Source: a virus. From it: DNA of 64,000 nt. The notes under the pieces are model-generated. The model was not told the DNA's origin, made no database searches, and saw only the letters and a list, made by a program, of their open reading frames with translations. A program made the translations under genes and the position numbers. Positions 12,874-56,396 of the stretch are shown here, in pieces (position 1 is the stretch's first letter; each line of letters begins with the position of its first letter). The DNA lies in IMG/VR virus record IMGVR_UViG_3300023179_000020; one strand, given 5' to 3'.

Positions 12874-12879
12874 AAAAAT

Positions 12880-14216: not shown

Positions 14217-14233
14217 AGAACCAATTTGGTTCT
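14217..14233. promoter_or_regulatory. Perfect inverted repeat (operator or weak terminator)
   Basis: agaaccaa-t-ttggttct immediately before the late motif at 14240. Confidence 0.4.
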
Positions 14234-14239
14234 GTAACA

Positions 14240-14247
14240 TATTTATA
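14240..14247 (+). promoter_or_regulatory. Putative late promoter TATTTATA (start of cassette B)
   Basis: Recurrent motif. Confidence 0.6.
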
Positions 14248-14262
14248 ATAAAAATCTAGCCA

Positions 14263-15264
14263 ATGCCTACAGCTAACAATTCTTTAATATTAAGAGAAGT
14301 TTTAGGTCAAAAACTTTCCATTACACAAATGGATGGTGACCTTTTGTATTTGTCTACTACTTTATCCGCTTCTAGAGGAGACGGTATTATACAAGTAACA
14401 GGATCATCTTTTGATGCTAGTAATACAAACATTACAGGTTCAAGATTATCATTAATAAACATAACAGAAATTCCTGATACTCATGTTTTAACATACAACA
14501 CTACTACAAAACAAGTTAATTACACTGCCTCAAGTGCAATTGGAGGAGGTGGTAGTGGGACACCGAGTGCTCCAGTCAACAGTGTTCAATTTAACAATGC
14601 TGGTGCTTTTGGTGGAAATGCTAATTTTACCTTTACTAATAATTCTACTGCTTCATTAACTGGAAGTTTATTGGTATCAGGAGGATTAGAAATATCAGGA
14701 TCAACTAAACTATTTGGTTTAACAAATCCAACCGCTACTAATGTTTTAACCTATAACACAAGCACAGGACAAGTATTTTATACTGCCTCAAGTGCAATTG
14801 GAGGAGGTGGTAGTGGAGTACCAGGTGGTGCTAATACTACTATTCAATTTAACGATGCTGGTGCTTTTAGTGGTAGTGGAAATTTTACTTTTATAAAAGG
14901 TTCAAACCTTGTTACACTAACAGGTAGTCTAACAGTTTCAGGTTCAAACACTACTACAGAAATAAAATTTCAAAACTTACAAGAAAATCTTGTTCCTACA
15001 AGTTCTGTAATGATTGATGAAGCAACAGGAAAACTTTCATACATTAATTTTTGGTATTCTCAATCAATTGGAGGTGCAGGAGCTACTAGTATTCAAGTAA
15101 ACCATAATTTAGGAACAATTTTAGTACACGTTACAGTTATGTCTGGAAGTGCTCCTTATGATACTGTTTATCCTACAGTTCAAAGAACAAGTGCTAATCA
15201 AGTAACACTAATATTTTCTCAACCTCCTGCTACTAATGAATACATAGCATATATTTCAAGATGA
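14263..15264 (+). CDS. Fibre/adaptor protein, cassette B
   Basis: N-terminus LREVLGQKLSITQMDGDL resembles that of 708; internal duplicated (I/V)QFN..GAF.G..NFTF unit; C-terminal domain paralogous to 10550. Confidence 0.65.
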   Translation: MPTANNSLILREVLGQKLSITQMDGDLLYLSTTLSASRGDGIIQVTGSSFDASNTNITGSRLSLINITEIPDTHVLTYNTTTKQVNYTASSAIGGGGSGTPSAPVNSVQFNNAGAFGGNANFTFTNNSTASLTGSLLVSGGLEISGSTKLFGLTNPTATNVLTYNTSTGQVFYTASSAIGGGGSGVPGGANTTIQFNDAGAFSGSGNFTFIKGSNLVTLTGSLTVSGSNTTTEIKFQNLQENLVPTSSVMIDEATGKLSYINFWYSQSIGGAGATSIQVNHNLGTILVHVTVMSGSAPYDTVYPTVQRTSANQVTLIFSQPPATNEYIAYISR

Positions 15265-15434
15265 TAAATGTAGTAACCTCAATACAATTAGTAGAAACAG
15301 GATCAATTCCAACTACTCCCCCATCAGGTTATTTAACTCTTTATATGGGTACAGATAAAATTTTATACATTATAGATTCTAATGGTACTAGAAAACAATT
15401 AAATGGTCCTAATATTTCTTTTTCTTATTTTTAA
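15261..15434 (+). CDS. 57-aa stand-alone fibre-tip domain, cassette B (missed by the ORF track)
   Basis: MINVVTSIQLVETGSIPTTPPSGYLTLYMGTDKILYIIDSNGTRKQLNGPNISFSYF; ATGA overlap; paralogue of 11578. Confidence 0.75.
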   Translation: MINVVTSIQLVETGSIPTTPPSGYLTLYMGTDKILYIIDSNGTRKQLNGPNISFSYF

Positions 15435-15443
15435 ATTAATTTT

Positions 15444-16856
15444 ATGATAAAAGTTTTAGACACTATAAAATTTAGAACAACAGAATCTTCACCTTTACCC
15501 GGTGCTCAACCTGATAATTTTGGACTTTTATTTTCAAGTGCAAGTTCTTTAGGAGCATATACTACTTTATATTTTACTAATAATACTGGTCAATCATTTG
15601 ACTTAACAAATGCTAATTCGGGTAGTATAAACGTTCTTTATTATACTGGCTCAGCTATAGGGGATGGAACAACAAAAACATATACTTGGACTAAACCTAC
15701 TAACCTAAGATTGTTAAAAGTAATATGTTTAGGTGCTGGAGGAGGAGGAGGTAGTGGTTGTGCTTTATATAGTAATTTCCATACTGCTACAGGTGGAATG
15801 GGAGGAGGAGGAGGAGGAATTACATATACTCAATTCTTTGCAGAAGAACTTCCTAATAATGTTTCTATAACCGTAGGAGCAGGAGGAGCAGGATCTTTAC
15901 TTCCTGTAACTTCATCAAATGATAATTTTAATCAAATAGTAAACGCAACTTGGGCTCAATCTGGTTCTAAAGGAGGTAATACTTCTTTTGGTTCATATGT
16001 TATAGCAGAAGGAGGTTATGGAGGATATGGAGGTTCAATACTTAGTATTTACTCAGGAAGTCAATTCAAATCAGAAGTAGCTGTCCCAGGAGGAGGAAAA
16101 AACAGCATACCAAGTAGAGGACCATATTCTTTCTTTGGAATCCCAGGTGGAGGATATGCTAGTGGATTTACTTTAACAACAGGATCCGGAGCACATGCTG
16201 GGATAGCCAACAATCCTTTTGTAAGTTCACCTTATAGTTCTTTATCATCTCCTCAAACATTTCAAATATATTCTAGTGAGAATGAAATAAATTTACAATA
16301 CACTGGAGCTATACCTATAGCAGGAGCAGGAGGAGGGGCTGGAGGAGGAAGAAGCACTGATTTTTCAAGTTTTGGTGGAGAATTTGGAATTGGTAATGGA
16401 GGATCAGGATCAGGGGTGTTTACTTTTAATGGTACTCTAACAAGTGGAAGTGCTGGAGGAAGAAGAGCATCAGCAAGTACAGATCCTGCTATTTTTAATG
16501 TATTTACAGCAAGTAATGGTTTTAATGGTAATGATAATGTTGGTAAAGATATTATCACTCAACTTATACAAAGTTTTCCTTTAAAAGGATTTACTGCTTC
16601 TTATGGTTTAGGAACAGGAGGTGGAGGTGGAGGAGGTACTTATTTTTCTGGTTCTACTCATAGAACAAATAAAGTAGCAGGAAATGGAGGACATGGAGGA
16701 TTATACGGAGCTGGAGGTGGTGGAGGAGGAGGATGTGGTACATTTGCAGTCTCACCAACCCTTGTCCCAGCTCAAGGAGCCGGAGGAGGTTATCCTTGGA
16801 GTGGCACAGGAGGAAGTGGCTCCTCAGGTTTATGTATACTAGTAGAATACTTTTAA
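15444..16856 (+). CDS. Glycine-rich adhesin B1
   Basis: Shares LYYTGSAIG.GTT.TYTW.KP and GGSGSSGLCI..E with A1. Confidence 0.75.
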   Translation: MIKVLDTIKFRTTESSPLPGAQPDNFGLLFSSASSLGAYTTLYFTNNTGQSFDLTNANSGSINVLYYTGSAIGDGTTKTYTWTKPTNLRLLKVICLGAGGGGGSGCALYSNFHTATGGMGGGGGGITYTQFFAEELPNNVSITVGAGGAGSLLPVTSSNDNFNQIVNATWAQSGSKGGNTSFGSYVIAEGGYGGYGGSILSIYSGSQFKSEVAVPGGGKNSIPSRGPYSFFGIPGGGYASGFTLTTGSGAHAGIANNPFVSSPYSSLSSPQTFQIYSSENEINLQYTGAIPIAGAGGGAGGGRSTDFSSFGGEFGIGNGGSGSGVFTFNGTLTSGSAGGRRASASTDPAIFNVFTASNGFNGNDNVGKDIITQLIQSFPLKGFTASYGLGTGGGGGGGTYFSGSTHRTNKVAGNGGHGGLYGAGGGGGGGCGTFAVSPTLVPAQGAGGGYPWSGTGGSGSSGLCILVEYF

Positions 16857-16864
16857 TAAAAAAC

Positions 16865-17938
16865 ATGAAAATTTTACACAACATATCCTTAATAAAAACT
16901 TCATCTGCTGAACCATTAGCATCACAATCTGGAGTAATTTACTCTAGTGGAAGTTCCGTGTACTTAACAGATAAAAGTGGAGCAGTATTTGATTTAGCAG
17001 CTAATAAAGGTTCTATGGTAATAACGGAATATGTTACTCCTGGGATTTATACTTGGAATAAAAACCCTAGTATTAATTTTGATATTAAATACTTACAAGT
17101 AGTTTGTGTAGGAGCAGGAGCAGGTGGTGGAGGAGGACAATCCGGTGCCACTAATAGTTCTAGAAGTGGAGGTGGAGGTGGTGGTGGAGGATCTATTGCT
17201 ACTGCTTGGTTTGAATCTTCTTCTTTAACTACTAGTTCTTATACTATTCAAGTTGGTACTGGAGGAGCTGGAGGTGCAGGAGGAGGAAGTGGAGGTGCAG
17301 ATGGAAGTACAGGTGCTGATGGCGGTGATAGTTTTTTTAGATCTGGTTCTTCTACAATTTTAGTTCAAGGAAAAGGAGGAAAAACTGGTAATTCTTATAG
17401 TGTTGGTGGTGATTTTTCACTAGCATCCACTCCTAATTTATTTTATCAATTAGTAGGATCAAGAGGAGGAAATGCCAGTACTTCTCCTAATTTTAATAAT
17501 ACTCCTTTATATTCATTTAATAGTAGTATAGGAACAGGAGGAGGAGGTGGAGGAGGATCAATTAATGTTTCTAATACTGCTCAAGCTGGAGCAACAGGCT
17601 CTGCTGTTTTTAAAAACGGACAATTGATTTTTACAGGTTCAGCAGGAACAGCTGGAGGTTCTGGCATAAACGGACAAAATGGTGTAAATAATTTTATAAA
17701 TGGATTAGTTTTAGCTGGTTTTTCTAGTAGTCTATACTCTTCTTCTTACGGTGTAGGAACACCGGGCCATGGAGGAGGAGCAAGTAGTCTTAATACTATC
17801 AATGGCGGAAATGGAGGATCAGGAAGTATTGGATGTGGTGGTGGAGGTGGTGGAGCAGGAACATCAGGAGGAGCAGCAAGCGCAGGAAACGGTGGAAAAG
17901 GTGGTGATGGGTATGTTCTTTTAATAGCCTATTACTAA
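16865..17938 (+). CDS. Glycine-rich adhesin B2
   Basis: Start moved to ATG 16865 (MKILHNISL..), which aligns with A2; ends GGDGYVLLIAYY. Confidence 0.75.
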   Translation: MKILHNISLIKTSSAEPLASQSGVIYSSGSSVYLTDKSGAVFDLAANKGSMVITEYVTPGIYTWNKNPSINFDIKYLQVVCVGAGAGGGGGQSGATNSSRSGGGGGGGGSIATAWFESSSLTTSSYTIQVGTGGAGGAGGGSGGADGSTGADGGDSFFRSGSSTILVQGKGGKTGNSYSVGGDFSLASTPNLFYQLVGSRGGNASTSPNFNNTPLYSFNSSIGTGGGGGGGSINVSNTAQAGATGSAVFKNGQLIFTGSAGTAGGSGINGQNGVNNFINGLVLAGFSSSLYSSSYGVGTPGHGGGASSLNTINGGNGGSGSIGCGGGGGGAGTSGGAASAGNGGKGGDGYVLLIAYY

Positions 17939-41354: not shown

Positions 41355-42305
41355 ATGATTACTGACATAAGGAATTACTACAAACCATTCGAATACCAAA
41401 CTGCATTTGATTTTTATAAAGACCAACATAGAGCACATTGGTTAGCAGATGAAGTTCCACTCGCATCAGATTTGAACGATTGGAAATTAAAATTAACAGA
41501 ACCCGAAAAGAATTTAATTGGAAACATATTAAAGTCATTTGCTCAAACAGAAGTCCATGTTAACGATTATTGGTCAACAAAAGTATCAATTTGGTTTCCG
41601 AAACCCGAAATCCAAGCTATGGCTCGTGTATTTGCTGATTTTGAAAGCATCCACGCTGAGGCTTATGCTCGATTAAATGAAGAATTAGGCTTAGACAATT
41701 TTAAAGCATTTTTAGAAGACGAAGCATCTAAAGCTAAAATTGAACGCTTGATTGAAACACCAGGCGAAACAATAGAAGATAAAGCAGTATCATTAGCCAT
41801 ATTCTCAGCATTTACTGAAGGTGTAAATTTATTTTCTTCATTTGCTGTATTAATGAGTTTCCAACTAAGAAACTTAATGAAAGGTACTGGTCAAGTAGTA
41901 GAGTGGAGTGTTAGAGATGAATCATTACATTCAAAAGCAGGTTGCTGGTTATTCAGAACACTACTTGAAGAACAACCAGAACTAAACACTGACGAATTAA
42001 GAGAAAAAATTATCGAAGCATGTCACCTATCAGTACAATTAGAATTTGATTTTATTGATAAAGCATTTGAAATGGGTGATATTGAAGGTTTAAATAAAGA
42101 ACAACTTAAAAACTTTATTAAAGCCCGTGCCAATGAGAAAATGATTGAATTAGGTTACAAAGCAATTTATAATGACATTGACCCTAACCTTTTAAAACAA
42201 ATTGAATGGTTTGGACATTTAACATCAGGTAAAACACAACAGGATTTCTTTGCTGGAAGAGTGACTGCGTATGCTAAGTCTACAGCAGATTGGGATGATT
42301 TATAA
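41355..42305 (+). CDS. nrdB: Class Ia ribonucleotide reductase beta subunit
   Basis: W.ADEVP..D, ESIHAEAY, EGV.LFSSF, RDESLH, DFF. Confidence 0.92.
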   Translation: MITDIRNYYKPFEYQTAFDFYKDQHRAHWLADEVPLASDLNDWKLKLTEPEKNLIGNILKSFAQTEVHVNDYWSTKVSIWFPKPEIQAMARVFADFESIHAEAYARLNEELGLDNFKAFLEDEASKAKIERLIETPGETIEDKAVSLAIFSAFTEGVNLFSSFAVLMSFQLRNLMKGTGQVVEWSVRDESLHSKAGCWLFRTLLEEQPELNTDELREKIIEACHLSVQLEFDFIDKAFEMGDIEGLNKEQLKNFIKARANEKMIELGYKAIYNDIDPNLLKQIEWFGHLTSGKTQQDFFAGRVTAYAKSTADWDDL

Positions 42306-42314: not shown

Positions 42315-44039
42315 ATGAGTATACAAGTAGATACAACAAATTGGATTAAGGGTAAAAATTACCCTGTATGGTTTGATGAAATAGGATTAAGTATGATTTC
42401 AAAAGGTTATTTATTACCTGATGAAGACGTATTTGATGCTTATAAAAGAGTAAGCAAGTTTGCTGCTCGTCGCTTACGCCGTAAGGATTTACAACCATTC
42501 TTTTATGAGGCAATGGTTAAAAACTGGTTATGCTTAGCATCACCCGTACTATCAAACATGGGCACTGAACGTGGAATGCCAATTTCATGTTTTGGTATTG
42601 ACGTAGGTGACAGTATTGAAGGCATTGCTGATGCTAATTCAGAACTAATGAGACTATCATCTCAAGGTGGAGGTGTTGGTATTGGTGTGTCTCGTATTAG
42701 GGGACGTGGTAAAGCCATTAAAGACAATGGAGTATCAGAAGGTGTTGTTCCATGGTGTAAAATTTATGATTCTACAATTCTGGCAACCAATCAAGGCTCA
42801 GTTCGTAGAGGAGCGGCATCTGTTAACCTAAACATTAACCACCCAGACATTGAAGAGTTTTTACAGATTCGTAGACCAAAAGGTGATGTTAACAGACAGT
42901 GTTTAAATCTTCATCAGTGTGTTGTTATTGATGATGAATTTATGAATAAAGTTGAAAATAAAGACCCCAAATCATTAAAAATTTGGGGTGAAATTTTAAA
43001 AACACGTCTTGAAACAGGTGAACCTTACATTATGTTTGAGGATAATATAAACAATGCTAATCCTGAAGCGTATAAGAAAAACAATCTAAAAGTTTCAATG
43101 AGTAATATTTGTACTGAAATTGCTCTTTATACAGACGAATTACACTCATTTATTTGTTGTTTATCATCATTAAACTTAGCAAGATGGGAAGAATGGAAAG
43201 ATTATAAATTTGAAAATGAAATGACTTTACCTGAACTATCATGTTGGTTTTTAGAAGGTGTATTACAAGAATTTATTGATAGAGCTAAAAACATTAAATT
43301 CATGGAAAACACAGTTCGATCCGCTACTAAAGGCAGAGCAATTGGAATTGGTGTTTTGGGTTGGCATACATTTTTACAACAAAAAGGATTACCATTTGTA
43401 GGCATTCAAGCAAATTCTTACACAAGAATAATGTTTGAATTTATTGAACAAGAAGCATTAAAAGCATCTCGTGCTCAAGCTGAATTGTATGGGGAACCAG
43501 AATGGTGTAAAGGTACAGGTTTAAGACACACCCATCATTTAGCACCTGCACCTACAGTGTCAAATGCTCACATTTCAGGAGGTGTATCACCTTCAATCGA
43601 ACCTATTCCTGCTAATGTTTATAACCTTAAAACAGCAAAAGGCGTATTTATTAAGCGTAATAAAATTCTAGAAGAATTGCTTACCAAAAAAGGATACAAC
43701 ATTGATAGTGTTTGGGACCAAATTCTAAAAGACCAAGGTTCAGTTTTAGGATTACCTGATTACATTTTAACAAATGAAGAAAAAGAAATATTTTTAACTT
43801 TTAAAGAAATTAATCAGTTAGAAATTGTTAAACAAAATGGCATTAGACAAAAATACGTTGACCAAGCAATTTCATTAAACTTAACATTTGACCCAAATGA
43901 CTCACCAAAATGGATTAGTCAGGTACATAAAGAAGCACATAAACAAGGAATTAAAACATTGTATTACTTACGCACTGAAAGTGTTTTAAGAGGAGACAAT
44001 TTACAACGTTTATCAGATTGTGTGAGTTGTGAGGGTTAA
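42315..44039 (+). CDS. nrdA: Class Ia ribonucleotide reductase alpha subunit (short, no ATP cone)
   Basis: PISCF, GGGVG, QGSVRRGA, SNICTEI, APTVS, KTLYYLR, C-terminal CVSCEG. Confidence 0.92.
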   Translation: MSIQVDTTNWIKGKNYPVWFDEIGLSMISKGYLLPDEDVFDAYKRVSKFAARRLRRKDLQPFFYEAMVKNWLCLASPVLSNMGTERGMPISCFGIDVGDSIEGIADANSELMRLSSQGGGVGIGVSRIRGRGKAIKDNGVSEGVVPWCKIYDSTILATNQGSVRRGAASVNLNINHPDIEEFLQIRRPKGDVNRQCLNLHQCVVIDDEFMNKVENKDPKSLKIWGEILKTRLETGEPYIMFEDNINNANPEAYKKNNLKVSMSNICTEIALYTDELHSFICCLSSLNLARWEEWKDYKFENEMTLPELSCWFLEGVLQEFIDRAKNIKFMENTVRSATKGRAIGIGVLGWHTFLQQKGLPFVGIQANSYTRIMFEFIEQEALKASRAQAELYGEPEWCKGTGLRHTHHLAPAPTVSNAHISGGVSPSIEPIPANVYNLKTAKGVFIKRNKILEELLTKKGYNIDSVWDQILKDQGSVLGLPDYILTNEEKEIFLTFKEINQLEIVKQNGIRQKYVDQAISLNLTFDPNDSPKWISQVHKEAHKQGIKTLYYLRTESVLRGDNLQRLSDCVSCEG

Positions 44040-45969: not shown

Positions 45970-46266
45970 ATGAAAGTAGGCTCATTTGTACAATGTATCA
46001 ATGATGTGTTCAACCCAGAACAATTAGACAAAATTCCGAATCGCCCTATACTAAACGAGTATTATACTATTAGGGAAATTATAGAATTTAATCCAAACCA
46101 TATAGGTATAATTTTAGAAGAAATACACAACTCTAAAATACCTAGCAAAAGATTTGGAACTATTGAACCTAGTTTCAATATTGAACGCTTTAGAGAAATA
46201 GAAGACATGCCCGACATACAAGCATTGTTAGACGAAATATTTACAGAAGAATTAATAGAAACATAA
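45970..46266 (+). CDS. Hypothetical protein
   Basis: ORF directly downstream of a promoter. Confidence 0.65.
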   Translation: MKVGSFVQCINDVFNPEQLDKIPNRPILNEYYTIREIIEFNPNHIGIILEEIHNSKIPSKRFGTIEPSFNIERFREIEDMPDIQALLDEIFTEELIET

Positions 46267-46784
46267 TGGTTACAGTTGAACAAGTTTTAAAAGAAGTAAA
46301 TCCAGTTTTTGGTATTAAAGCACCACCAAAACCTAAACCACTCAAGTTTAACATATTTTATTATCACAGACGTTATCCTACTCATAAATTTTTACCATCC
46401 AATTCAAGCATATGGGATAAATGTAAAAACGGTGATTTTGAATACTCACCTTATGCTCAATACATAAATTATGAGTATTATTGGATGGCTGAAGAAATTA
46501 CCGCTGTTCGCAACAGCAACAGCAACGATGATGTGAAGGAAGAAAAAGAACGAGACATAAGATTAAACTACAACAAACGTATCAAAAACCTTAGACAAGA
46601 CTTTGAACGAGACGAATTTGAACGTATCAAAAACCTTAAAAACAGTCTCCGTTCAATATTTGGTGGTACAATGGAAGAAGTAAACAATTTTATAGACAAT
46701 TTTGCTTGTGGTACAACAGATGAAGTGATTCGAAGTTACAGGGCTATACGAGCCAAATCACCAGAAAATAATCTTCCTTATTAA
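46266..46784 (+). CDS. Hypothetical protein
   Basis: ORF with TAATG overlap. Confidence 0.65.
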   Translation: MVTVEQVLKEVNPVFGIKAPPKPKPLKFNIFYYHRRYPTHKFLPSNSSIWDKCKNGDFEYSPYAQYINYEYYWMAEEITAVRNSNSNDDVKEEKERDIRLNYNKRIKNLRQDFERDEFERIKNLKNSLRSIFGGTMEEVNNFIDNFACGTTDEVIRSYRAIRAKSPENNLPY

Positions 46785-46829: not shown

Positions 46830-47615
46830 ATGAAAGTATCTCACGAAGTTCCCTTATGTGCTTTAGAATGGTCAAAAGATTTTAATGACTATGATTATTG
46901 TTTGCCCCACTTATTAGACAAATACCCTCAATACGAGAAGTATTTTAGATGGGCTAAAGAAAACAATCGATACATTATAATGGATAATTCACTACATGAA
47001 TTAGGTCATGCTTATGATACTGATCGTTTAATGTACTGGATAAATGAATTACAACCAAACGAATTTATTGTCCCTGATGTGTGGGAAGACATGGAAGCAT
47101 CAATCAAAAATGCAGCTAAATGGGCTAACACTACACTCCCACATAATGTTCTTAAAGTAGCTGTAGTACAAGCCAAAGATATTGAAGAAGCACATATATG
47201 TTATTTTAAGTATAAATCATTAAGGTACAACAAAATAGCATTCTCATATGGTGCTTCTTATTATAAACAACTATTCCCTCACCCATCTCCAGACATTGCT
47301 ACAGCAATGGGACGAGTATATGTTGTAAGTAAATTATATAAAGAAGGTGTTATTAAAGAAACTGATAACATTCATTTATTAGGATGTGCTGTTCCACAAG
47401 AATTTATGTATTATAAAGACATGCCTTTTGTTACAACAATTGATACATCAAATCCTATAATGGCCGCTATTGAAAACATAAGATATAATGAGTGGGGTTT
47501 AGATAAAAAACCTAAAACCAAAATTGACGAAGTGATGGAAGCCGATTTAGAAAAACCACAATTAGCAAAAATAATTTTTAATACTAAACAATTTAGAATA
47601 ATAAATGGAATATAA
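46830..47615 (+). CDS. TGT-fold/DpdA-like 7-deazaguanine insertion protein
   Basis: IMDNS, IVPDV, AVVQ, IHLLG and IDTSNP motifs, spaced as in TGT/DpdA TIM barrels; first gene of the que cluster. Confidence 0.6.
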   Translation: MKVSHEVPLCALEWSKDFNDYDYCLPHLLDKYPQYEKYFRWAKENNRYIIMDNSLHELGHAYDTDRLMYWINELQPNEFIVPDVWEDMEASIKNAAKWANTTLPHNVLKVAVVQAKDIEEAHICYFKYKSLRYNKIAFSYGASYYKQLFPHPSPDIATAMGRVYVVSKLYKEGVIKETDNIHLLGCAVPQEFMYYKDMPFVTTIDTSNPIMAAIENIRYNEWGLDKKPKTKIDEVMEADLEKPQLAKIIFNTKQFRIINGI

Positions 47616-47820
47616 ATCACTTTATGATTACTTGGGCAGAGCTGCAGGTAGTCAACTAGGAAAACAAGTAGCTGAGGCTGCTGTTCGAGATAGAATAAAA
47701 ATTCAAACTCGACAAGTATCTAATCCAAAATACCAAGGAGAAATAATGCTATACCCTTCAGATTGGCTTACAAAATACTTTAATCCAAATAAATCATCAA
47801 AAGACAATTTACCATTTTAA
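47605..47820 (+). CDS. Hypothetical protein
   Basis: SLYDYLGRAAG..Y.GEIMLYP. Confidence 0.6.
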   Translation: MEYKSLYDYLGRAAGSQLGKQVAEAAVRDRIKIQTRQVSNPKYQGEIMLYPSDWLTKYFNPNKSSKDNLPF

Positions 47821-47830
47821 AAATAAAATT

Positions 47831-48718
47831 ATGAACAAAAAACAAGCAGTATTATCATTAAGTGGAGGAATGGATAGCTCCACATTGCTGCTTCATCTAC
47901 TTGCCAATGGCTATGAAGTAACAGCACTATCATTTGATTATGGACAAAAACATAATGTTGAATTAGAATGTGCTAAAGATTTAGTTAAATACATTAACAC
48001 CTATCCACTCCGTTTATTTCATCATGATCGAGCACCTGGTGGATTTGAAGAAATTTATCCATTAGTAAAACACCAAGTAATTAAACTTGACGGATTATCA
48101 CAATTACTTAATTCAGCATTGGTGCAAGGTGGAGAAGAAGTACCTGAAGGACACTATGCTGAAGAAAATATGAAAGCAACAGTAGTACCTAATCGTAATA
48201 AGATTTTTAGTTCAATTATTCAAGCAGTTGCATTATCAGTTGCTGAACAAAAGAACACAGAATGTGCCATTGCAATGGGTATTCATGCTGGTGACCATGC
48301 CATTTATCCTGATTGTAGACAAGAATTTAGGGATGCTGATTTTGAAGCATTCAAAATGGGAAATTGGGGAAGTGAAAAAGTATACCATTATACACCGTAT
48401 CTTGAAGGAGATAAATATAAAATATTATGTGATGGGGCTTATTGTTGTCAAGAATTAGGATTAAACTTTGACGAAGTGTATAAGCGTACTAACACCTCAT
48501 ACAAACCAATTCATTGGACTTGGCAAGATGTAAACGGTGAATTTAGAAGCAAATGGTATTCAGACTATAAGTCAGCATCATCTGTAGAACGTATTGAAGC
48601 ATTTATGAAACTAGGAAAACAAGATCCAGTTGAATATGCAGATGAAGAAGGCCCTACAACTTGGAAAGTAGTAACAAATCATGTACAACAAATATTAAAA
48701 AATCATGCCAACATCTAA
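47831..48718 (+). CDS. queC: 7-cyano-7-deazaguanine synthase (variant lacking Zn cysteines)
   Basis: SLSGGMDSST PP-loop, FDYGQKH, TVVPNRN, HAGDHAIYPDCR. Confidence 0.9.
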   Translation: MNKKQAVLSLSGGMDSSTLLLHLLANGYEVTALSFDYGQKHNVELECAKDLVKYINTYPLRLFHHDRAPGGFEEIYPLVKHQVIKLDGLSQLLNSALVQGGEEVPEGHYAEENMKATVVPNRNKIFSSIIQAVALSVAEQKNTECAIAMGIHAGDHAIYPDCRQEFRDADFEAFKMGNWGSEKVYHYTPYLEGDKYKILCDGAYCCQELGLNFDEVYKRTNTSYKPIHWTWQDVNGEFRSKWYSDYKSASSVERIEAFMKLGKQDPVEYADEEGPTTWKVVTNHVQQILKNHANI

Positions 48719-48893
48719 AAAACGAGGTGGAAAAAAAGCCCACAACAAACGAATTAAAAAACGTAATACTAATCTTAAAAACATGGAACGTGCATACGAG
48801 AAAGTATTTACTAAAGTCTTAGAAAAACAATTAGAAAACATAAACTTAGAAGAAAATGGAACATCCAGATCCGAAGAAACACCTTCAGCTTAG
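48705..48893 (+). CDS. Small basic protein
   Basis: K/R-rich ORF. Confidence 0.55.
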   Translation: MPTSKKRGGKKAHNKRIKKRNTNLKNMERAYEKVFTKVLEKQLENINLEENGTSRSEETPSA

Positions 48894-49011
48894 TCTTTTA
48901 AAATCTGCTTTTAGAATGGTAGGTTATTTATTTTTATTATCAAACCCATTATTTGCAGTATTATTACTGATTATTAGTGAGGTTTTTGGAATATGGGAGG
49001 AAAAAGTATGA
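48856..49011 (+). CDS. 51-aa membrane protein (missed by the ORF track)
   Basis: MEHPDPKKHLQLSLLKSAFRMVGYLFLLSNPLFAVLLLIISEVFGIWEEKV; ATGA overlap with the thioredoxin gene. Confidence 0.6.
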   Translation: MEHPDPKKHLQLSLLKSAFRMVGYLFLLSNPLFAVLLLIISEVFGIWEEKV

Positions 49012-49262
49012 GCAAACAATTATACTACTACAGTGCACCTTGGTGCAACCCATGTGAAACATTAGGACCAATCATGGATCAAGTTAATAAACAGATTCCT
49101 GTTCGTAAAATTAACATTGACTATGCTGATCCGGCTGTATTAACAGAAGCGCAAGTAAGAAACATTCCTACTGTAGTTCTCGTGGAGAATAATAAGGAAG
49201 TTCGTAGATTTACAGGTATAAAAACTTTTAATCAAATTATAGACTGGTTGAATTATGGCTGA
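49008..49262 (+). CDS. Thioredoxin-like protein
   Basis: APWCNPC, VRNIPT; start moved to 49008. Confidence 0.85.
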   Translation: MSKQLYYYSAPWCNPCETLGPIMDQVNKQIPVRKINIDYADPAVLTEAQVRNIPTVVLVENNKEVRRFTGIKTFNQIIDWLNYG

Positions 49263-49515
49263 ATTTAGTAAACAATGGGCTGAAAAAAATGATCCCGAAA
49301 TGCCCTGGGATTTTGATATTTTAGAAATTGCAGATACTCTTGAACCTAATTATTATTCTTCGTACATTTGTGAAGGTTATGGTTTTATTGCCATAGCTAA
49401 AGACGGAAATGGAGACATTATGTTAGGAATACCTACAGGTACATCTAATCTTAATGAAGACGGAACATATGTTGATGAAGTAAATTGGAAATCTTTTGAC
49501 GAAGTAATAATATGA
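49255..49515 (+). CDS. Hypothetical protein
   Basis: MAEFSKQ..ICEGYG. Confidence 0.6.
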   Translation: MAEFSKQWAEKNDPEMPWDFDILEIADTLEPNYYSSYICEGYGFIAIAKDGNGDIMLGIPTGTSNLNEDGTYVDEVNWKSFDEVII

Positions 49516-49973
49516 GTTTTAAATCAACAAAATTATTTGACGGATACTCAACTTGTTTTCGTCAATGGAAAGCAGACGATACGCATTGTAAATTTTTACA
49601 TGGCTACGCTATTTCATTTAGAGTATGGTTTGAAGGTGAATTAGACGAACGTAATTGGGTGTGGGACTTTGGAGGCATGAAACGTGCTAAAACCCAAATT
49701 AATCATATGTCACCAAAAGATTTTTTTACTTGGTTACTTGACCATACTACAATTATAGCGCAAGATGATCCACATTTAGAAACTTTTAGACAACTGAATA
49801 AAGATGGTATTATACAATTAAGAGTACTACCAGCAACTGGTTGTGAACAATTTGCAAAGTATTTATACAATACTATTAATACTTTCTTAGTAGAAGAAAC
49901 AAATGGTCGAGTTAAAGTATCAAAATTAGAAGTTTATGAAAACGAACGAAACAGTGCCAGTTACGGAGAATAA
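49512..49973 (+). CDS. queD: 6-carboxytetrahydropterin synthase
   Basis: HCKFLHGY, WVWDFG, LDH, CEQFA, VYENERNSA. Confidence 0.85.
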   Translation: MSFKSTKLFDGYSTCFRQWKADDTHCKFLHGYAISFRVWFEGELDERNWVWDFGGMKRAKTQINHMSPKDFFTWLLDHTTIIAQDDPHLETFRQLNKDGIIQLRVLPATGCEQFAKYLYNTINTFLVEETNGRVKVSKLEVYENERNSASYGE

Positions 49974-50030
49974 TTACTGGACTTCAACTCCAACATACAA
50001 CATAAATTACATTTACATTTATATAAAATT

Positions 50031-50573
50031 ATGTCAAAAGTAAGTAAAAATAAAATTACGTTACTTGAAATGAGAACCGAGTATCTACGAATATTGCAAG
50101 AGGTAGGTGATTTAGAAAACGTAGAACCGTATCCATACGAAAATAACAGCTTTACGACAGATGAAAATTGGAAAGTGAAGGTAGATTTTGATATTGTCCC
50201 ATTTGCTGAATTTAAACAATTAGATTTACCTACCAAGAGATGGAATACATACAATGTGAGCTATGATGTAAATGGGGAACAATCACAGTATAAAAAAACA
50301 ACATACAAACAGCTAATAAGGATACTTAAGACTGTATCTGACATTGTAATAGATTTTGTCAAAGGTAAAGATACAGTAGAAGCATTAGGTTTTCTAGCAG
50401 CTAATAAAGACCCACAAAAATTAATTACCCATACCGATCCTCAAAAATCTGCTATCTACAAAGCAATAATAGTAAAAAGCATTTCTAAACTAGGTTCGGA
50501 GTGGAAATTAAGAGAGGTTGAAATAGGAGGCCCTGAATTTAAAGGATTTGTATTAATAAAAACAAAAATATAA
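50031..50573 (+). CDS. Hypothetical protein (ILQE site; possible head-packaged protein)
   Basis: Inserted between queD and queE; CATTTATA upstream at 50016. Confidence 0.6.
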   Translation: MSKVSKNKITLLEMRTEYLRILQEVGDLENVEPYPYENNSFTTDENWKVKVDFDIVPFAEFKQLDLPTKRWNTYNVSYDVNGEQSQYKKTTYKQLIRILKTVSDIVIDFVKGKDTVEALGFLAANKDPQKLITHTDPQKSAIYKAIIVKSISKLGSEWKLREVEIGGPEFKGFVLIKTKI

Positions 50574-50575
50574 TT

Positions 50576-51520
50576 ATGTCAAAAATAGATCCAAACAAAT
50601 TATTAATCAGTAGTGATTTTTACAGCGTACAAGGAGAAGGTTTTTCTACAGGTGTGCCTTCATATTTTGTTCGTTTAGGAAACTGTAATTTAACTTGTGG
50701 TATGTCTCGTTTATTTACTAATAAACTAATGAAAGAAAAATCATTAGAAAATGGTGAAGTATTTGAAGGTGACTTACACAAAGAAGGTAAAGCAACTTGG
50801 ACCTGTGATTCAACTTCTCAATGGCTATGGAGAGGTGAGAATAGAGACTTCCAGTATCTAATTGATAGATGGAAGGAACAAGGTATCTACGAAGATATTA
50901 AGAACGGTACTATCCATATCATTTGGACTGGTGGTGAACCTACAATTAAAGGGCATCAAGAAGCAATTGTAAACTTTACTAAACATCTGTTAAAGTCCAA
51001 TACCAAAATATCAGTACCTGATGATCTGTTTACAACATTAGAGCACCTACATGGTTTAGATAAATCTAAAATAGATGATATGTTAAGTGACACAGCAGCT
51101 GAAATGATTAGTAAATCAGATACATCATTGTATTATGAGATAGAAACAAATGGTACAGTTTATATTGACGAACCATTATTTAAAATTATTGATCAAATCA
51201 ACTGTTCACCAAAATTATCCAACTCAGGTATGACAGAAAAACAACGTATTGTTCCTGCAGCTATTAAGCGTATTATGGAACATTCAAACTACCAATTTAA
51301 GTTTGTAATTTCAAATGAAGAAGATGTTAAGGAATTGTTCCGTGACTTTATAGAACCATTTAATATTCCTCTTAAAAATGTTTGTTGTATGCCTGGAATG
51401 GATTCTCAAGAACAGTTTCATGAACGGACACAATGGGTACTTGAAATGGCTAAAAAATATCGTTTTGTAGGATTAACCCGTTTACACATCTCAGCTTGGG
51501 ACAAAACCTTAGACGTTTAA
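50576..51520 (+). CDS. queE: 7-carboxy-7-deazaguanine synthase (radical SAM)
   Basis: FYSVQGEG..G.PSYFVRL.NCNLTC..CDS, TGGEP, IETNGT, CSPKL, FKFV, RLH. Confidence 0.88.
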   Translation: MSKIDPNKLLISSDFYSVQGEGFSTGVPSYFVRLGNCNLTCGMSRLFTNKLMKEKSLENGEVFEGDLHKEGKATWTCDSTSQWLWRGENRDFQYLIDRWKEQGIYEDIKNGTIHIIWTGGEPTIKGHQEAIVNFTKHLLKSNTKISVPDDLFTTLEHLHGLDKSKIDDMLSDTAAEMISKSDTSLYYEIETNGTVYIDEPLFKIIDQINCSPKLSNSGMTEKQRIVPAAIKRIMEHSNYQFKFVISNEEDVKELFRDFIEPFNIPLKNVCCMPGMDSQEQFHERTQWVLEMAKKYRFVGLTRLHISAWDKTLDV

Positions 51521-51521
51521 T

Positions 51522-51743
51522 ATGAATAAACCAATTTTTATAATGCGATTTCCATATAATGATATGGATAGAGATAGTTTTTTAAAAAATTATGAAGCTA
51601 TAAGCAACCAATTAAATGATTATCATGTATTAGCAATGATGGATAATTATGTTGAAACAGTAACATTTGAATGTTTTAATGCCCCTCATACTGAAATGGA
51701 ATTTGAAGAATTAAAGCATCGTGTATTAGAATTACTAAAGTAA
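51522..51743 (+). CDS. Hypothetical protein
   Basis: ORF. Confidence 0.55.
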   Translation: MNKPIFIMRFPYNDMDRDSFLKNYEAISNQLNDYHVLAMMDNYVETVTFECFNAPHTEMEFEELKHRVLELLK

Positions 51744-51753
51744 AGAGTATAAC

Positions 51754-52029
51754 ATGAATAAACAATTACTAAAAGAAACAATCAATAACGAAAATGTTAT
51801 AATTCTGTTTAGTGCAGATTGGTGTGGTGCTTGTAAAGCAACTAGTCCTTATGTTCAAAAAATAGTTGAACGATTAAGGTTTAAGTTTATTAAAATTGAA
51901 GAAAACGAAGAATTAGAACAAGAATACGGTGTAGATTATTACCCTCACCTTATTTTAGCAAGCAAAGGTAAAATAAAACATTATCCAGGCGGAAACGAAA
52001 TAAAATCCCTATATGAAAGTATTATTTGA
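51754..52029 (+). CDS. Second thioredoxin-like protein
   Basis: FSADWCGACK, YGVDYYP. Confidence 0.8.
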   Translation: MNKQLLKETINNENVIILFSADWCGACKATSPYVQKIVERLRFKFIKIEENEELEQEYGVDYYPHLILASKGKIKHYPGGNEIKSLYESII

Positions 52030-52525
52030 AAAAGAAACAATTGAAAAGCAAATTAAAAAAATTGCAACTCAAATCCACAACCGCCACAAATCAGAAAAAG
52101 ATGTACCCATTGTTATGGTATGTGTTTTGAATGGTGGTTTTATGTTTTATTCTAAATTACTAGACCAATTATCACATTTAGACCCAGAATGTGAATTTAT
52201 TAAAATAAAATCTTATAAGGGTAGAGAACATGAAGCACCTGAAATGATTATTCCTGCTTCTTTAGATGTAAAAGGTAAATTTGTTTACATTGTAGACGAC
52301 ATTTATGATTCAGGTGTAACAATGGATATTTTAAGAAAGCAATTTACAGAAAAGGGTGCTTTTGGAGTAAGTGTTGTTACCCTAATAAAAAGAGAAATTA
52401 ATGAAATAAACATGCCCGTAGGTTCATTTTATGGATTTGAAATTTATGATGAATGGGTTGTTGGTTATGGTATGGATGATGAAGAAGGTAAGAAAAGAAG
52501 TTTGCCTTACATTTTGGCAGTTTGA
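52013..52525 (+). CDS. hpt: Purine (hypoxanthine/guanine-type) phosphoribosyltransferase
   Basis: VCVLNGGFMF, KSY, PRPP loop VYIVDDIYDSGVT, WVVGYGMD..R.LPYI. Confidence 0.85.
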   Translation: MKVLFEKETIEKQIKKIATQIHNRHKSEKDVPIVMVCVLNGGFMFYSKLLDQLSHLDPECEFIKIKSYKGREHEAPEMIIPASLDVKGKFVYIVDDIYDSGVTMDILRKQFTEKGAFGVSVVTLIKREINEINMPVGSFYGFEIYDEWVVGYGMDDEEGKKRSLPYILAV

Positions 52526-52542
52526 TAAAATTATAGTATATT
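52513..52542 (+). promoter_or_regulatory. Promoter TTTG-N20-TATATT
   Basis: Upstream of folE. Confidence 0.65.
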
Positions 52543-52550
52543 AAGGTTAT

Positions 52551-53246
52551 ATGGAAAACAATAGAAGAAAATTTCACAATGACATTGAATGTGTCCCATT
52601 AGGATTTGCTAATGGTTCTGCTCCTGGAGCACCATTTACAGAACGAGAAAAATTAAAAATGATTGATGAAGCAGCTGAACACTTTGGTAACTTCTTAACA
52701 GCACTAAAATGTGACTGGCAAAACGATCCTAATTCTGCTGACACTCCTCGTCGTGTAGCTAAAGCATATGTAAATGATTTGTGGGCAGGTCGTTATAACG
52801 GTTTTACAGACATTACTTCATTCCCATCAGACGGGTATGATGGAGTAATCATTGAACGTAATATTGAATTAACTTCAATGTGCTCACACCACCACCAAAC
52901 AATTAGAGGTGTAGTACACATCGGATATGTTTCAGGTGCCGAAGGTAGAGTAATTGGTTTGTCAAAACTGAATCGCATTGTAGAACATTTTGGTCGTAGA
53001 GGTGCTATTCAAGAACAATTAACTGCCGCTATCCATCAAGCAGTAAATAAAGTATGTGAAGGTAATAAAGGTGTTATTGTATCAATTGTAGCAACTCACA
53101 ATTGTGTAAGTTGTAGAGGTGTAAAACACCAAGGCGCCGCTATGGTTACTACTAAAGCATCAGGAGTATTTATGGAAAACGATAATCAAGCACGTAAAGA
53201 ATTTTTTGATTCACTTAAAATAAATAATGGTCATGTCTCAATCTAA
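52551..53246 (+). CDS. folE: GTP cyclohydrolase I
   Basis: DTPRRVAK, SMCSHH, IGLSKLNR, IQEQLT, HNCVSCRGV. Confidence 0.93.
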   Translation: MENNRRKFHNDIECVPLGFANGSAPGAPFTEREKLKMIDEAAEHFGNFLTALKCDWQNDPNSADTPRRVAKAYVNDLWAGRYNGFTDITSFPSDGYDGVIIERNIELTSMCSHHHQTIRGVVHIGYVSGAEGRVIGLSKLNRIVEHFGRRGAIQEQLTAAIHQAVNKVCEGNKGVIVSIVATHNCVSCRGVKHQGAAMVTTKASGVFMENDNQARKEFFDSLKINNGHVSI

Positions 53247-53748
53247 AACAGTAAATTACGAAGCAATTGCTAAAGCAATGCAATCAGTAGCATTTGTTGA
53301 TGAAGTAGAAACATTCAACAAAACAATGGGTAAACCCAACAATTATTCTCCAGTCATTCCTGAAGAAAAAGAATGGATGTTTGTTTATAATTTTATTCTA
53401 GAGGAACTAGAGGAATATAAAGAAGCATGTGAAAAAGGAGACATTGTAGGAGTATTAGATGCATTGTGTGACATAACTTATGTTTCACTAGGAAACGGTA
53501 CTATGCTTCATGGTCTAAAAGGCCACATTAAAGATGCATATGCTGAAGTACAAGCATCAAACATGAGTAAAGTTTGTAAAACAGAAGAAGAAGCTAATTT
53601 AACAGTTCGTGTTAGAGAACAAGAACAAGGTACTGTTTGTCATTATGAAAAACAGGGTGATTATTGGGTAGTGTATCGTACTTGGGATAGGAAAGTTATG
53701 AAATCAATCAACTACTTTAAACCAAATCTAGAGCAATTCTTTAAATAA
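53227..53748 (+). CDS. MazG-like all-alpha NTP pyrophosphohydrolase
   Basis: EELEEY..DALCDITYV..EVQASNMSK..KVMKS. Confidence 0.8.
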   Translation: MVMSQSKTVNYEAIAKAMQSVAFVDEVETFNKTMGKPNNYSPVIPEEKEWMFVYNFILEELEEYKEACEKGDIVGVLDALCDITYVSLGNGTMLHGLKGHIKDAYAEVQASNMSKVCKTEEEANLTVRVREQEQGTVCHYEKQGDYWVVYRTWDRKVMKSINYFKPNLEQFFK

Positions 53749-53766
53749 ATTTACGAATTAAATTTA

Positions 53767-53813
53767 AAATTAGGCTTGGGAAACTAAGCCTTTTTTATTA
53801 TATTAAGGTTATG
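53767..53813 (+). promoter_or_regulatory. Composite terminator hairpin and CTTG-N20-TATATT promoter, copy 1
   Basis: aggcttgg-gaaa-ctaagcct plus T-run; 44/47 identical to 59741-59787. Confidence 0.75.
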
Positions 53814-56396
53814 TACCAATCAGTTTACTACGACCATCAAACATACACCTATTACTTACGAGACGACAAACAAGGTTGGATGCAATTCCAGTTCCAACCT
53901 ACATTTTGGAAACGTACTAGTGAATGGAGTGAAAAAGCAAAACCTGTTCTAACAGGTGGCTACGCTGTGCCCACTAAAAAGTATAGTAAAGAGGATCCTG
54001 ATTTATTAGAAAAAGACATTGACAAATCACTTTTAATACTACGAGAATTATACTATAAAGAAGATGATGTTGTCCCTGAATGGCATAACATAGTCTACAT
54101 AGACATAGAAATTGAAATGGGAGGTGCACTTACACCCTCATACGTTCAACAAGCACCTATGCCTTTAACATCTATTGCTCTTATAGATGTGACTACAAAA
54201 CAAAAAATATGTCTTGTTGTTGATCCATCAGGTCAAATCAAAGAAATAAACCAAGATAGTAAACACATTATTCCTTGTAAAACTGAAAAAGAATTAATAG
54301 GTAAATTTTTATCTAAATTTGAAGAACTAGACCCTACAATACTTGTAGGATACAATTCAGATTACTTTGACATACCTTATTTATACTACAGGATTAAACA
54401 AATTGTAGGTGAAGATGAAGTGTTACGCTTGTCTCCAATCAAAAAGGTAACTGCTAGAGAATTTAATGGAGAAACACAAATCACTATTGGAGGTGTTAAT
54501 TGTTTGGACTATATGCTGCTTCATAAAAAATACATTATGAAGGAAGAACCATCATATAAATTAGGAGACATAGGAACCAAATATGTTAACCTAGGAAAAA
54601 TTGAATACGAAGGAAACTTAAACACATTATTCAAAGACAACCTAAACAAATTTATAGACTACAACTTACGAGACGTAGAAATTATTGAAGCGTTAGAGGC
54701 TAAACTTAAATTTATCGACTTAACAATAATGATTTCTCACATCTGTAACATTCCTTACGAATCAATTTACTGGAATACAGTTATGAATGAAGGTGCTATT
54801 TTAAAGCATCTTAAACGTGAAGGTATCATTTCACCAAACAAGCCAACAACTCATAATCCATCATTAAAAACATTTAATGAATCATATGCTGGTGGTTATT
54901 TGTTAGAACCTATTCCTGGTTTATATTTTGATGTTATTGATTTGGACTTTACTTCACTGTACCCTTCAATCATCAAATCACTTAATTTAGGAATTGAAAC
55001 ATTAGTTGGTAGAATTAAAGTTGATCATAGACCAACCTATGAACAAAACCATAGTCTAGATAAACTTAAAGAACGTGATCCTGAAGAAGAAATTATAATT
55101 GAAAAAGTAAACAAGAAAAATTATACTTTGGTTCAAGGAAAAACCAAAATAAAAGACCTAATTAAAATTGTTGAAGACAATAACTTTACCATTTCAGCTT
55201 CAGGTGCCATGTTTAGAACTGATGAACAAAGTGTTGTTGCTAAAATTTTAGAAGGATGGTTTGATAAACGAGAACATTATCGTGGTTTAAAGAAAAAAGC
55301 TGGTAAAGAAGAAGATTGGGCAAATTATAAATTGTATGACTTGTTTCAACATGCCTTTAAAATCTTACAAAACGCTATGTATGGTACATTTGCTAAAAGT
55401 GGATGGCGCTATACTGATGGACAATTAATTTGTAGTGCTGCTATTACAAATACTGGACAATCCCTTACACAGAATACAATTAAATTTGTTAATAATAAAA
55501 TAAACACTGAATTAAAATCAGATAAACAATACGTTTGCATTAGTGACACAGATTCGGTTTATATAGTATTAGGGGATTTATTAAAACATAGATATTCTAA
55601 TTATACTCCTGAAGACAAAGACAAACATATCCTAGAATTAGCAACCCAAATCCAAGATGAAGCAAATAATAATCTTAACACAATGTGTAAAGAATTATTT
55701 AACATTGATGCTTCTAAACACTACTTTCAGCTAAAACAAGAAGTAATTGCTAAAGGTATTCTTGTTACAGGTAAGAGAAGATATGCAATGTACATTACTA
55801 ATAAGGAAGGTGTCGCTGTTGAAGAACTGGACATGAAAGGACTTGAATTGATGAAGTCTAATATGAATAAGTTATTCAAATCATTTGGAGAACAACTTAT
55901 TAAAAACATATTGTTTGGTAAATCTAAAACTGACATAGACAATTCAATTATTGACTTTTATAAATCACTTAAAACAACAGACATTAAACAACTTGGTAAA
56001 CCAACTGGAGTAAAACAAATAAAAGCATATATTGTACCTGCCAAAGCAGGTGAAATGTTTAGTAGCTTCAGACTAAAAGCACCTTCAAACACCAAAGCAG
56101 CTGTTCGTTATAATGACTTATTAAAATTTAAAAAACTAGATAAAAAATACGAATCCATAATTGAAGGTGATAAAATTTTTATTATTAACCTAAAACCAAA
56201 CATGTACAAACTGGATACAATTGGTTTACCAAATGCTAAGGTACCTGATGAAATAGAAAAATTTGTTAAAATGTACATTGATATAGATGAAATTTTTGAA
56301 TCATTGTTGTTGAATAAGTTAAAGGAACTTTATATTGACCTTTCTTGGGAGTTCCCGCCATTAAATGCTAATGTGACTAAGTTTTTTTCGTTTTAA
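53811..56396 (+). CDS. Family B DNA polymerase (T4 gp43-like)
   Basis: Exonuclease motifs DIEIE, GYNSDYFD, YNLRD; polymerase motifs DLDFTSLYPSII, KILQNAMYG, SDTDSVY, KRRYA. Confidence 0.95.
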   Translation: MYQSVYYDHQTYTYYLRDDKQGWMQFQFQPTFWKRTSEWSEKAKPVLTGGYAVPTKKYSKEDPDLLEKDIDKSLLILRELYYKEDDVVPEWHNIVYIDIEIEMGGALTPSYVQQAPMPLTSIALIDVTTKQKICLVVDPSGQIKEINQDSKHIIPCKTEKELIGKFLSKFEELDPTILVGYNSDYFDIPYLYYRIKQIVGEDEVLRLSPIKKVTAREFNGETQITIGGVNCLDYMLLHKKYIMKEEPSYKLGDIGTKYVNLGKIEYEGNLNTLFKDNLNKFIDYNLRDVEIIEALEAKLKFIDLTIMISHICNIPYESIYWNTVMNEGAILKHLKREGIISPNKPTTHNPSLKTFNESYAGGYLLEPIPGLYFDVIDLDFTSLYPSIIKSLNLGIETLVGRIKVDHRPTYEQNHSLDKLKERDPEEEIIIEKVNKKNYTLVQGKTKIKDLIKIVEDNNFTISASGAMFRTDEQSVVAKILEGWFDKREHYRGLKKKAGKEEDWANYKLYDLFQHAFKILQNAMYGTFAKSGWRYTDGQLICSAAITNTGQSLTQNTIKFVNNKINTELKSDKQYVCISDTDSVYIVLGDLLKHRYSNYTPEDKDKHILELATQIQDEANNNLNTMCKELFNIDASKHYFQLKQEVIAKGILVTGKRRYAMYITNKEGVAVEELDMKGLELMKSNMNKLFKSFGEQLIKNILFGKSKTDIDNSIIDFYKSLKTTDIKQLGKPTGVKQIKAYIVPAKAGEMFSSFRLKAPSNTKAAVRYNDLLKFKKLDKKYESIIEGDKIFIINLKPNMYKLDTIGLPNAKVPDEIEKFVKMYIDIDEIFESLLLNKLKELYIDLSWEFPPLNANVTKFFSF

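Follow-up and report, generated by a model that had tools for sequence, protein, structure and literature searches.

The stretch of viral DNA analysed here, IMG/VR record IMGVR_UViG_3300023179_000020 with a length of 64,000 nucleotides (in the following, the window), carries between positions 46,830 and 56,396 a contiguous set of plus-strand genes for the synthesis and transfer of 7-deazaguanine. In this order, they encode a transglycosylase of the DpdA3 family, QueC, a thioredoxin, QueD, QueE, a second thioredoxin, a phosphoribosyltransferase (PRT), FolE, a MazG-like pyrophosphatase and the family B DNA polymerase PolB, with both subunits of a class I ribonucleotide reductase (RNR) upstream and GroES and GroEL downstream (Table 1). 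All assignments were verified by profile searches, and the gene list of an earlier note on this DNA, made from the sequence alone, was thereby confirmed; the gene described there as similar to tRNA-guanine transglycosylase (TGT) or DpdA, which has no Pfam match, was assigned by its match to phrog_19058 and its homology to DpdA3. Judged from its genes, the region holds a DpdA3-type module for the modification of DNA with 7-deazaguanine, set in that part of an uncultured aquatic phage genome which serves nucleotide metabolism and replication. PolB and NrdAB adjoin the cluster because it sits in the replication module. The window has a GC content of about 31%, nearly all of its open reading frames (ORFs) lie on the plus strand, and the genes are densely packed; within the cluster, the end of the second thioredoxin gene overlaps the start of the PRT gene by 17 nt and the end of folE overlaps the start of the MazG-like gene by 20 nt. 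Together with DpdA3, the genes of QueC, QueD, QueE and FolE span at most 6.5 kb.

Table 1. Features of the window and of related phage genomes. Positions without prefix refer to the window; L and G numbers denote related loci and genomes, respectively.
Feature	Position	Strand	Evidence or remark
NrdB (class I RNR)	41355-42305	+	PF00268 1.5e-64
NrdA (class I RNR)	42315-44039	+	PF02867 8.5e-96
Conserved 172-aa protein, no assigned function	46266-46784	+	directly upstream of DpdA3
DpdA3-family transglycosylase (predicted), 261 aa	46830-47615	+	phrog_19058 7.7e-48
QueC (CDG to ADG to preQ0), 295 aa	47831-48718	+	PF06508 2.4e-38
Thioredoxin 1	48993-49262	+	PF00085 1.2e-12
QueD (CPH4 synthase)	49512-49973	+	PF01242 1.4e-15
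180-aa ORF between QueD and QueE	50031-50573		no Pfam, PHROGs or NCBIfam match
QueE (radical-SAM CDG synthase), divergent	50576-51520	+	phrog_2076 8.5e-39; TIGR03963 2e-11
Thioredoxin 2	51754-52029	+	PF00085 3.8e-16
Hpt-type 6-oxopurine PRT, 170 aa	52013-52525	+	PF00156; TIGR01203 HGPRTase 6e-37
FolE (GTP cyclohydrolase I), first pathway step	52551-53246	+	PF01227 8.5e-43
MazG/PRA-PH-like all-alpha NTP pyrophosphatase	53227-53748	+	PF01503 4.8e-9
Family B DNA polymerase PolB, 861 aa	53811-56396	+	PF00136 1.8e-31; PF03104 3.2e-16
dUTPase/dCTP-deaminase-like gene in the MazG slot	L035:12855-13307; L092:15872-16369; L085/L087:18787-19284		minority of relatives
AAA_28 kinase homologues	G004:C1:94153-94647; G005:C1:114271-114711; G006:C1:31301-31756; G009:C1:117681-118175		unlinked to cluster
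FolE with N-terminal PRT-like domain, Vibrio phage VpKK5	L008:4998-5900		annotated 'GTP cyclohydrolase'
FolE with N-terminal PRT-like domain, Pseudomonas phage Baskent_P4_1	L007:4971-5864		annotated 'GTP cyclohydrolase'

The first gene of the cluster, which has no Pfam match, was compared with the transglycosylases of known modified phages. By tblastn, its product is 37% identical to both CP220 gp056 and the immuto DpdA (gp206), with alignments that cover 98-100% of the query and E-values of 1e-45 to 3e-49. An alignment with phiST CGPG_00065 shows 21% identity. An AlphaFold (AF2) model calculated from 19 homologues reached a predicted local distance difference test score (pLDDT) of 93.8 and matched, with a Foldseek probability of 1.0, bacterial and human TGT (2ash, 7nq4), archaeal ArcTGT (1iq8) and the DNA preQ0 insertase DpdA (7ui4). 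The protein is a minimal TGT-fold (beta/alpha)8 barrel without the CxCxxC zinc motif. In the alignment, residues D52, D83 and D205 are unchanged from the window to phiST, and a profile comparison, weak at E 1.3, places D205 opposite the SID motif of DpdA 7ui4. With 3267 homologues in metagenomes at E<=1e-3, this is a large family. On these grounds the protein is a DpdA3-subfamily 7-deazaguanine transglycosylase, for which base exchange would follow from family membership. Net charge and isoelectric point (pI) were considered as a clue to whether the enzyme binds DNA or nucleotides and were dropped, because DpdA1 is equally acidic.

To our knowledge, DpdA3 phages are the only phages known in which every guanine is replaced by a 7-deazaguanine. 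The subfamily was named by Cui et al. (2023), who described complete replacement of G in the phages CP220 (by dADG), phiST (by dDG) and immuto (by fdPreQ1). These authors favoured insertion after replication, on the argument that a DpdA is encoded by each of the modified phages.

All four families of the synthesis pathway are present in the window, with scores that lie under the NCBIfam equivalog cut-offs throughout and mark them as divergent phage forms. FolE, QueD, QueE and QueC turn GTP into 7-cyano-7-deazaguanine (preQ0) via 6-carboxytetrahydropterin (CPH4), 7-carboxy-7-deazaguanine (CDG) and 7-amido-7-deazaguanine (ADG). The absence of queF stated in the earlier note was borne out: neither the window nor about 150 related loci contain a homologue of the immuto QueF, the DpdN formyltransferase or the AAA_28 kinase, and DpdL and a Gat domain were not found either. 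Because QueC is present and these later enzymes are missing, dPreQ0 is predicted as the product, with dADG in its place should QueC stop early; the base in the phage DNA would accordingly be preQ0 or ADG. By analogy with the three analysed DpdA3 phages, the replacement is probably near complete.

The QueE of the window is a divergent form. It carries an insert of about 33 residues in the radical S-adenosylmethionine (SAM) Cys motif (C37x3C41x35C77 instead of the usual CxxxCxxC) and shares only 28% identity with its 260-aa counterpart in the closest relative (L003), in which the flanking genes are 75-97% identical. It looks as if this one gene of the pathway had been replaced by a xenologue.

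For analysis of the gene order in relatives, 80 related IMG/VR loci were found via alignment of DpdA3 (52-82% identity) and 78 via PolB (56-100%). Both sets share a common order, namely NrdA...DpdA3, QueC, thioredoxin, QueD, QueE, (thioredoxin), PRT, FolE, MazG, PolB and GroES/EL, and this recurrence means that the gene order is not due to chance. NrdA lies 5' of DpdA3 in most of the related loci, the succession of thioredoxin, PRT and FolE recurs, FolE2 stands in for FolE in some relatives, and PolB comes after the MazG-like or dUTPase gene in all of them. As a control for the frequency of the PRT, relatives lacking the que genes were sought among the 78 PolB relatives, and none were found, the cluster being present in every locus with enough upstream flank. 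A megablast search of the region against 50,697 phage records gave no match. PolB itself is one ORF in the window and in its closest relatives and is split in many more distant ones (L004, L005, L006 and others) into ORFs of about 570 and 309 aa with an ORF of 88-123 aa between them. A family of 125-142 aa without Pfam match is located, depending on the relative, either 5' of DpdA3 or between QueE and FolE (L006:9624-10001; L127:7156-7566) and is another mobile accessory gene of the cluster.

The PRT belongs to the Hpt type. Its TIGR01203 score of 127 bits lies below the curated equivalog cut-off of 150; against Hpt and HGXPRT proteins in the PDB, E-values of about 1e-20 were obtained, with end-to-end alignments to E. 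coli Hpt (1g9s) and Leptospira HGXPRT (4qri). The aligned elements comprise the phosphoribosyl pyrophosphate (PRPP) loop IVDDIYDSGVTM, the SY catalytic loop, the aromatic stacking residue and the pyrophosphate-binding Arg, and also the acidic pair, the catalytic Asp and the basic O6 ligand are retained, either unchanged or with conservative substitutions. Among 51 different phage copies, no variation is seen at S67, Y68, D95, D96, D99, G101, T103, G151, G153 and R162, and at position 127, the counterpart of the O6-binding Lys in E. coli Hpt, each copy has R or K. D99 corresponds to the Asp in contact with N7 of the purine in human and E. coli HPRT. Because this residue is kept and a 7-substituted 7-deazapurine has no N7, the active site reads as a canonical 6-oxopurine site. 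Unlike cellular Hpt and HGXPRT enzymes, the phage proteins have L-N-G instead of L-K-G in loop I (48 of 51 copies) and a Trp as stacking residue.

With respect to its distribution, the PRT is frequent and at the same time exchangeable. It is present in the cluster in 46 of 49 informative loci found via DpdA3, 36 of them with the Hpt type and ten with a small Gpt type of about 131 aa, which is unrelated to the Hpt type and is also found in immuto. Wherever related loci carry a PRT in the cluster, it adjoins FolE. In the set of close PolB relatives, the interval between QueE and FolE is without a PRT in 17 of 38 loci. In a maximum-likelihood tree of DpdA3 from 55 loci, the PRT state (Hpt, small or none) changes at least ten times, and sister loci differ. 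In the complete relative G004, an Hpt-type gene lies about 100 kb from the cluster. The complete relative G005 has no purine PRT, its only protein with a PRT fold being one of 256 aa that reads as Prs-like from its sequence, and neither the 95%-complete relative G006 nor the CP220 genome has a PF00156 match. The constant partner of the que genes is DpdA3 and not the PRT.

Two possible sources of error were addressed. ORFs of 132-142 aa in front of FolE in loci lacking a PRT were considered as diverged PRTs and rejected, as they have neither a PRPP motif nor a Pfam match and the same family also occurs beside DpdA3 in a locus with an Hpt-type PRT. Hpt homologues with 72-75% identity were considered as host genes indicating a recent capture; this was ruled out by their location in the same phage cluster.

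Matches to either PRT type in the 50,697 phage records are few except in phages bearing que genes, and those of the Hpt type are mostly short unannotated or bacterial-looking entries. A further link between a PRT and FolE was found in Vibrio phage VpKK5 (Queuovirinae) and Pseudomonas phage Baskent_P4_1, which share the arrangement queE-queC-queD-folE. The N-terminal part of their FolE proteins (297-300 aa) is a Gpt-like PRT domain of about 117 aa that has kept its PRPP loop intact (XGPRT, E 7e-5); neither record annotates this domain. Analyses of Queuovirinae and relatives have shown partial modification, which in phage iggy is motif-specific. Neither a PRT link in general nor the apparent PRT-FolE fusion is mentioned in the three papers on phage 7-deazaguanine that were searched for it, among them Cui et al. 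(2023) and Hutinet et al. (2019). As the PRT is linked to the first step of the pathway, interchangeable between families and dispensable, we read it as a helper recycling guanine rather than as an obligatory entry step; it is most likely an optional salvage enzyme for guanine (or hypoxanthine).

The MazG-like protein, PRA-PH-like in Pfam, is highly conserved in the relatives and 73% identical to immuto gp208. Its family extends far beyond this clade, with 2822 representative clusters. Loci lacking it after FolE carry a gene similar to trimeric dUTPases and dCTP deaminases (DCD) instead (PF00692 3.6e-17; PF22769 2.6e-10). When loci with both FolE and PolB were counted, 35 had only the MazG-like gene and three only the dUTPase gene; none had both or neither. 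The same alternation is seen in whole records, in which three complete or nearly complete genomes have the MazG-like gene without PF00692 and two others show the reverse. A sequence search against the PDB gave nothing for the MazG-like protein. Its AlphaFold model (pLDDT 94.2) has DR2231 from Deinococcus radiodurans as the sole clear PDB match group, at a Foldseek E-value of 7e-4, a probability of 1.0 and a template modelling (TM) score of 0.54-0.72; the phage protein differs from DR2231 by an extra C-terminal beta-hairpin (residues 138-151). DR2231 was crystallised with dUMPNPP, and the title of Mota (2016), as cited in PMC10014863, ascribes to it 'exclusive activity on dUTP'. For the FolE-adjacent counterpart in phiST, which has no detectable homology to the protein of the window, HHpred indicated a dimeric dUTPase or MazG (Cui et al. 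2023). Alternation and modelled fold together make a dUTPase-type enzyme probable.

Four known systems can be compared with the cluster. The Flavobacterium phage immuto is similar in sequence (DpdA3 37%, QueC 63%, QueD 60%, FolE 63% and GroEL 60% identity) and in arrangement, with the PRT gene just 5' of folE and a polymerase gene downstream. In contrast to immuto, the window lacks QueF and DpdN, so that its pathway is expected to go no further than preQ0 or ADG; its PRT is a 170-aa Hpt-type and not a 131-aa Gpt-type protein, its polymerase is PolB and not PolA, and the AAA_28 kinase is not part of the cluster. The Campylobacter phage CP220 (Firehammervirus) shares with the window a DpdA3 homologue (37%) and FolE, QueD, QueE and QueC without QueF, and its DNA contains 100% dADG according to Cui et al. 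(2023), but its genes are scattered, DpdA3 is located between an HD/AAA protein and a kinase, and a PF00156 match is missing. The Cellulophaga phage phiST has a DpdA3 with the same invariant Asp, a FolE gene followed by a gene for an all-alpha NTP pyrophosphatase or dUTPase-like protein, and a small-type PRT near the RNR; it differs by the lack of QueC and of an AAA_28 kinase and by the presence of the decarboxylase DpdL. Finally, in the clusters for tubercidin and toyocamycin (PMC6112128), the purine-type PRTs TubE and ToyH are encoded beside homologues of FolE, QueD and QueE. This likeness is one of gene context; in contrast to the window, these clusters have no transglycosylase and lead to a free nucleoside antibiotic.

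In our judgement, it is moderately probable that DpdA3 inserts preQ0 or ADG into DNA, that the PRT recycles guanine and that the MazG-like protein serves dUTPase-type housekeeping. FolE, QueD, QueE and QueC would make preQ0 from GTP, and DpdA3 would swap guanine in the phage DNA for the 7-deazaguanine base. With PRPP, the Hpt-type PRT would convert the released guanine to GMP, which would be fed back as GTP to FolE; thereby, released guanine would also be kept from competing in the exchange. The MazG-like protein would act in pyrimidine metabolism without depleting dGTP. Salvage of guanine released by DpdA for FolE had been mentioned in the earlier note as an alternative, and it is this alternative that the evidence favours. 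The cluster is a further case of the described DpdA3 system, and its PRT and MazG-like protein do not look like components of a new pre-replicative route.

Several points weigh against this interpretation. According to Cui et al. (2023), tests of DpdA3 in E. coli failed, and no activity of DpdA3 in vitro or in a heterologous host is known from the literature. Complete replacement via post-replicative exchange is unusual, and both product and extent of replacement are extrapolated for the window by analogy. The match of the MazG-like protein to DR2231 is modest (E 7e-4, 16-20% identity), a fold does not give the substrate specificity, and the protein with the trimeric dUTPase fold might conceivably act on a different substrate as well. 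A gene for an NTP pyrophosphatase or a dUTPase-fold protein always adjoins folE, even in the unrelated phiST, and a PRT is present in 94% of the loci found via DpdA3; both observations may indicate a closer tie to the pathway than housekeeping. Also, a PRT specific for a 7-deazaguanine exists in TubE, whose transfer of CDG to PRPP is proven and whose gene has homologues of FolE, QueD and QueE as neighbours (PMC6112128).

Exchange at the level of free nucleotides is a rather unlikely alternative. Here, DpdA3 would trade guanine for preQ0 or ADG on free dGMP or dGTP, a small kinase would re-phosphorylate the product and, with host enzymes, bring it to the triphosphate, PolB would incorporate it and the PRT would recycle the guanine to GTP. 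If true, this would account for the 100% replacement seen in each of the three DpdA3 phages studied, an extent typical of pre-replicative routes, and the published model of insertion after replication would be overturned. It agrees with the ADG nucleoside that Cui et al., citing Crippen, mention for the cytoplasm of CP220-infected cells, with the modified-dGTP route proposed for Campylobacter phages (Hutinet 2019) and with the minimal 261-aa barrel of DpdA3 lacking the zinc motif. In CP220, an AAA_28 kinase-like gene adjoins DpdA3, in immuto one lies nearby, and homologues were detected in all four large genomes of the clade that were checked (E 1e-13 to 1e-17; 176-177 aa in three of them). 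However, the kinase genes of the clade lie 50-60 kb from DpdA3 among genes that give no functional clue, none is present in the window or its 20-kb relatives, and the whole phiST genome has no homologue; a guanylate kinase was looked for and not found. Furthermore, the would-be supplier of dGMP, the MazG-like protein, looks like a stand-in for a dUTPase, and all characterised TGT and DpdA enzymes work on polynucleotides.

We consider the route preferred in the earlier note improbable. In this route, the PRT would make the ribonucleotide of preQ0, CDG or ADG with PRPP, kinases and NrdAB would convert it to the deoxynucleotide, the MazG-like enzyme would destroy dGTP and PolB would incorporate the modified nucleotide. 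The CDG specificity of TubE makes such a route enzymatically possible, the PRT gene lies within the que cluster in 46 of the 49 loci, RNR, pyrophosphatase and PolB are close by, and the replacement in the analysed DpdA3 phages is complete. Yet DpdA3, the constant partner of the que genes, would be redundant. The assignment of the PRT as maker of a 7-deazaguanine nucleotide is disfavoured by its replacement with a non-orthologous PRT or its loss on at least ten occasions and by its absence from G005, G006 and CP220, and the N7-contacting Asp is invariant together with the remaining canonical Hpt site. The indispensable enzyme for a modified nucleotide known from dZ phages therefore has no counterpart in this PRT. 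The route is also disfavoured by the fusion of a Gpt-like PRT domain to the GTP-consuming FolE in Queuovirinae-type phages, whose tested relatives are only partly modified. As for dGTP depletion, the evidence leans against such a role of the only candidate, the MazG-like protein, whose slot alternates with a trimeric dUTPase/DCD-family gene and whose fold is nearest to the dUTP-exclusive DR2231; a plain dUTPase had been listed in the earlier note among the outcomes that would speak against its proposal.

Equally improbable is the idea that PRT and MazG-like protein are general auxiliary genes of nucleotide metabolism placed next to the deazaguanine genes by the module alone: the PRT can indeed be missing or lie about 100 kb away (G004), the MazG-like family is widespread and the cluster sits amid RNR, ThyX and polymerase genes, but two unrelated PRT families share the slot next to FolE, phiST and immuto likewise have PRT genes, FolE of Queuovirinae-type phages bears a fused PRT-like domain, and matches among the phage records are few outside que-bearing phages.

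Other genes of the window were inspected as well. Homologues of the 172-aa protein encoded directly upstream of DpdA3 are located 5' of DpdA3 in most related loci, and the protein has no significant Pfam or PHROG match. It was considered as a kinase of the CP220 and immuto type, which was ruled out by the lack of similarity and of a P-loop/Walker A motif. The 180-aa ORF between QueD and QueE has a paralogue with 29% identity elsewhere in the closest relative (L003:3518-4048). Further upstream, at positions 11734-17938, the window encodes four paralogues rich in glycine (379, 368, 470 and about 370-400 aa) with long poly-Gly runs, whose C-termini include LCIITEFY and YLIILEYY. Two of them have a short conserved ORF of 48-57 aa in front, and the fourth ORF as listed begins within the third. 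These proteins, which are probably tail-fibre-like, are the cause of a local jump in GC content (to 0.43) and GC skew (to +0.33).

The window adds a very abundant uncultured clade to the DpdA3 phages, with dPreQ0 or dADG as product predicted in the absence of QueF. Since the PRT appears to be a dispensable, interchangeable helper and the MazG-like protein a dUTPase equivalent, neither would be a good marker of a pre-replicative pathway. The comparative data narrow the question of how DpdA3 phages reach 100% replacement of guanine.

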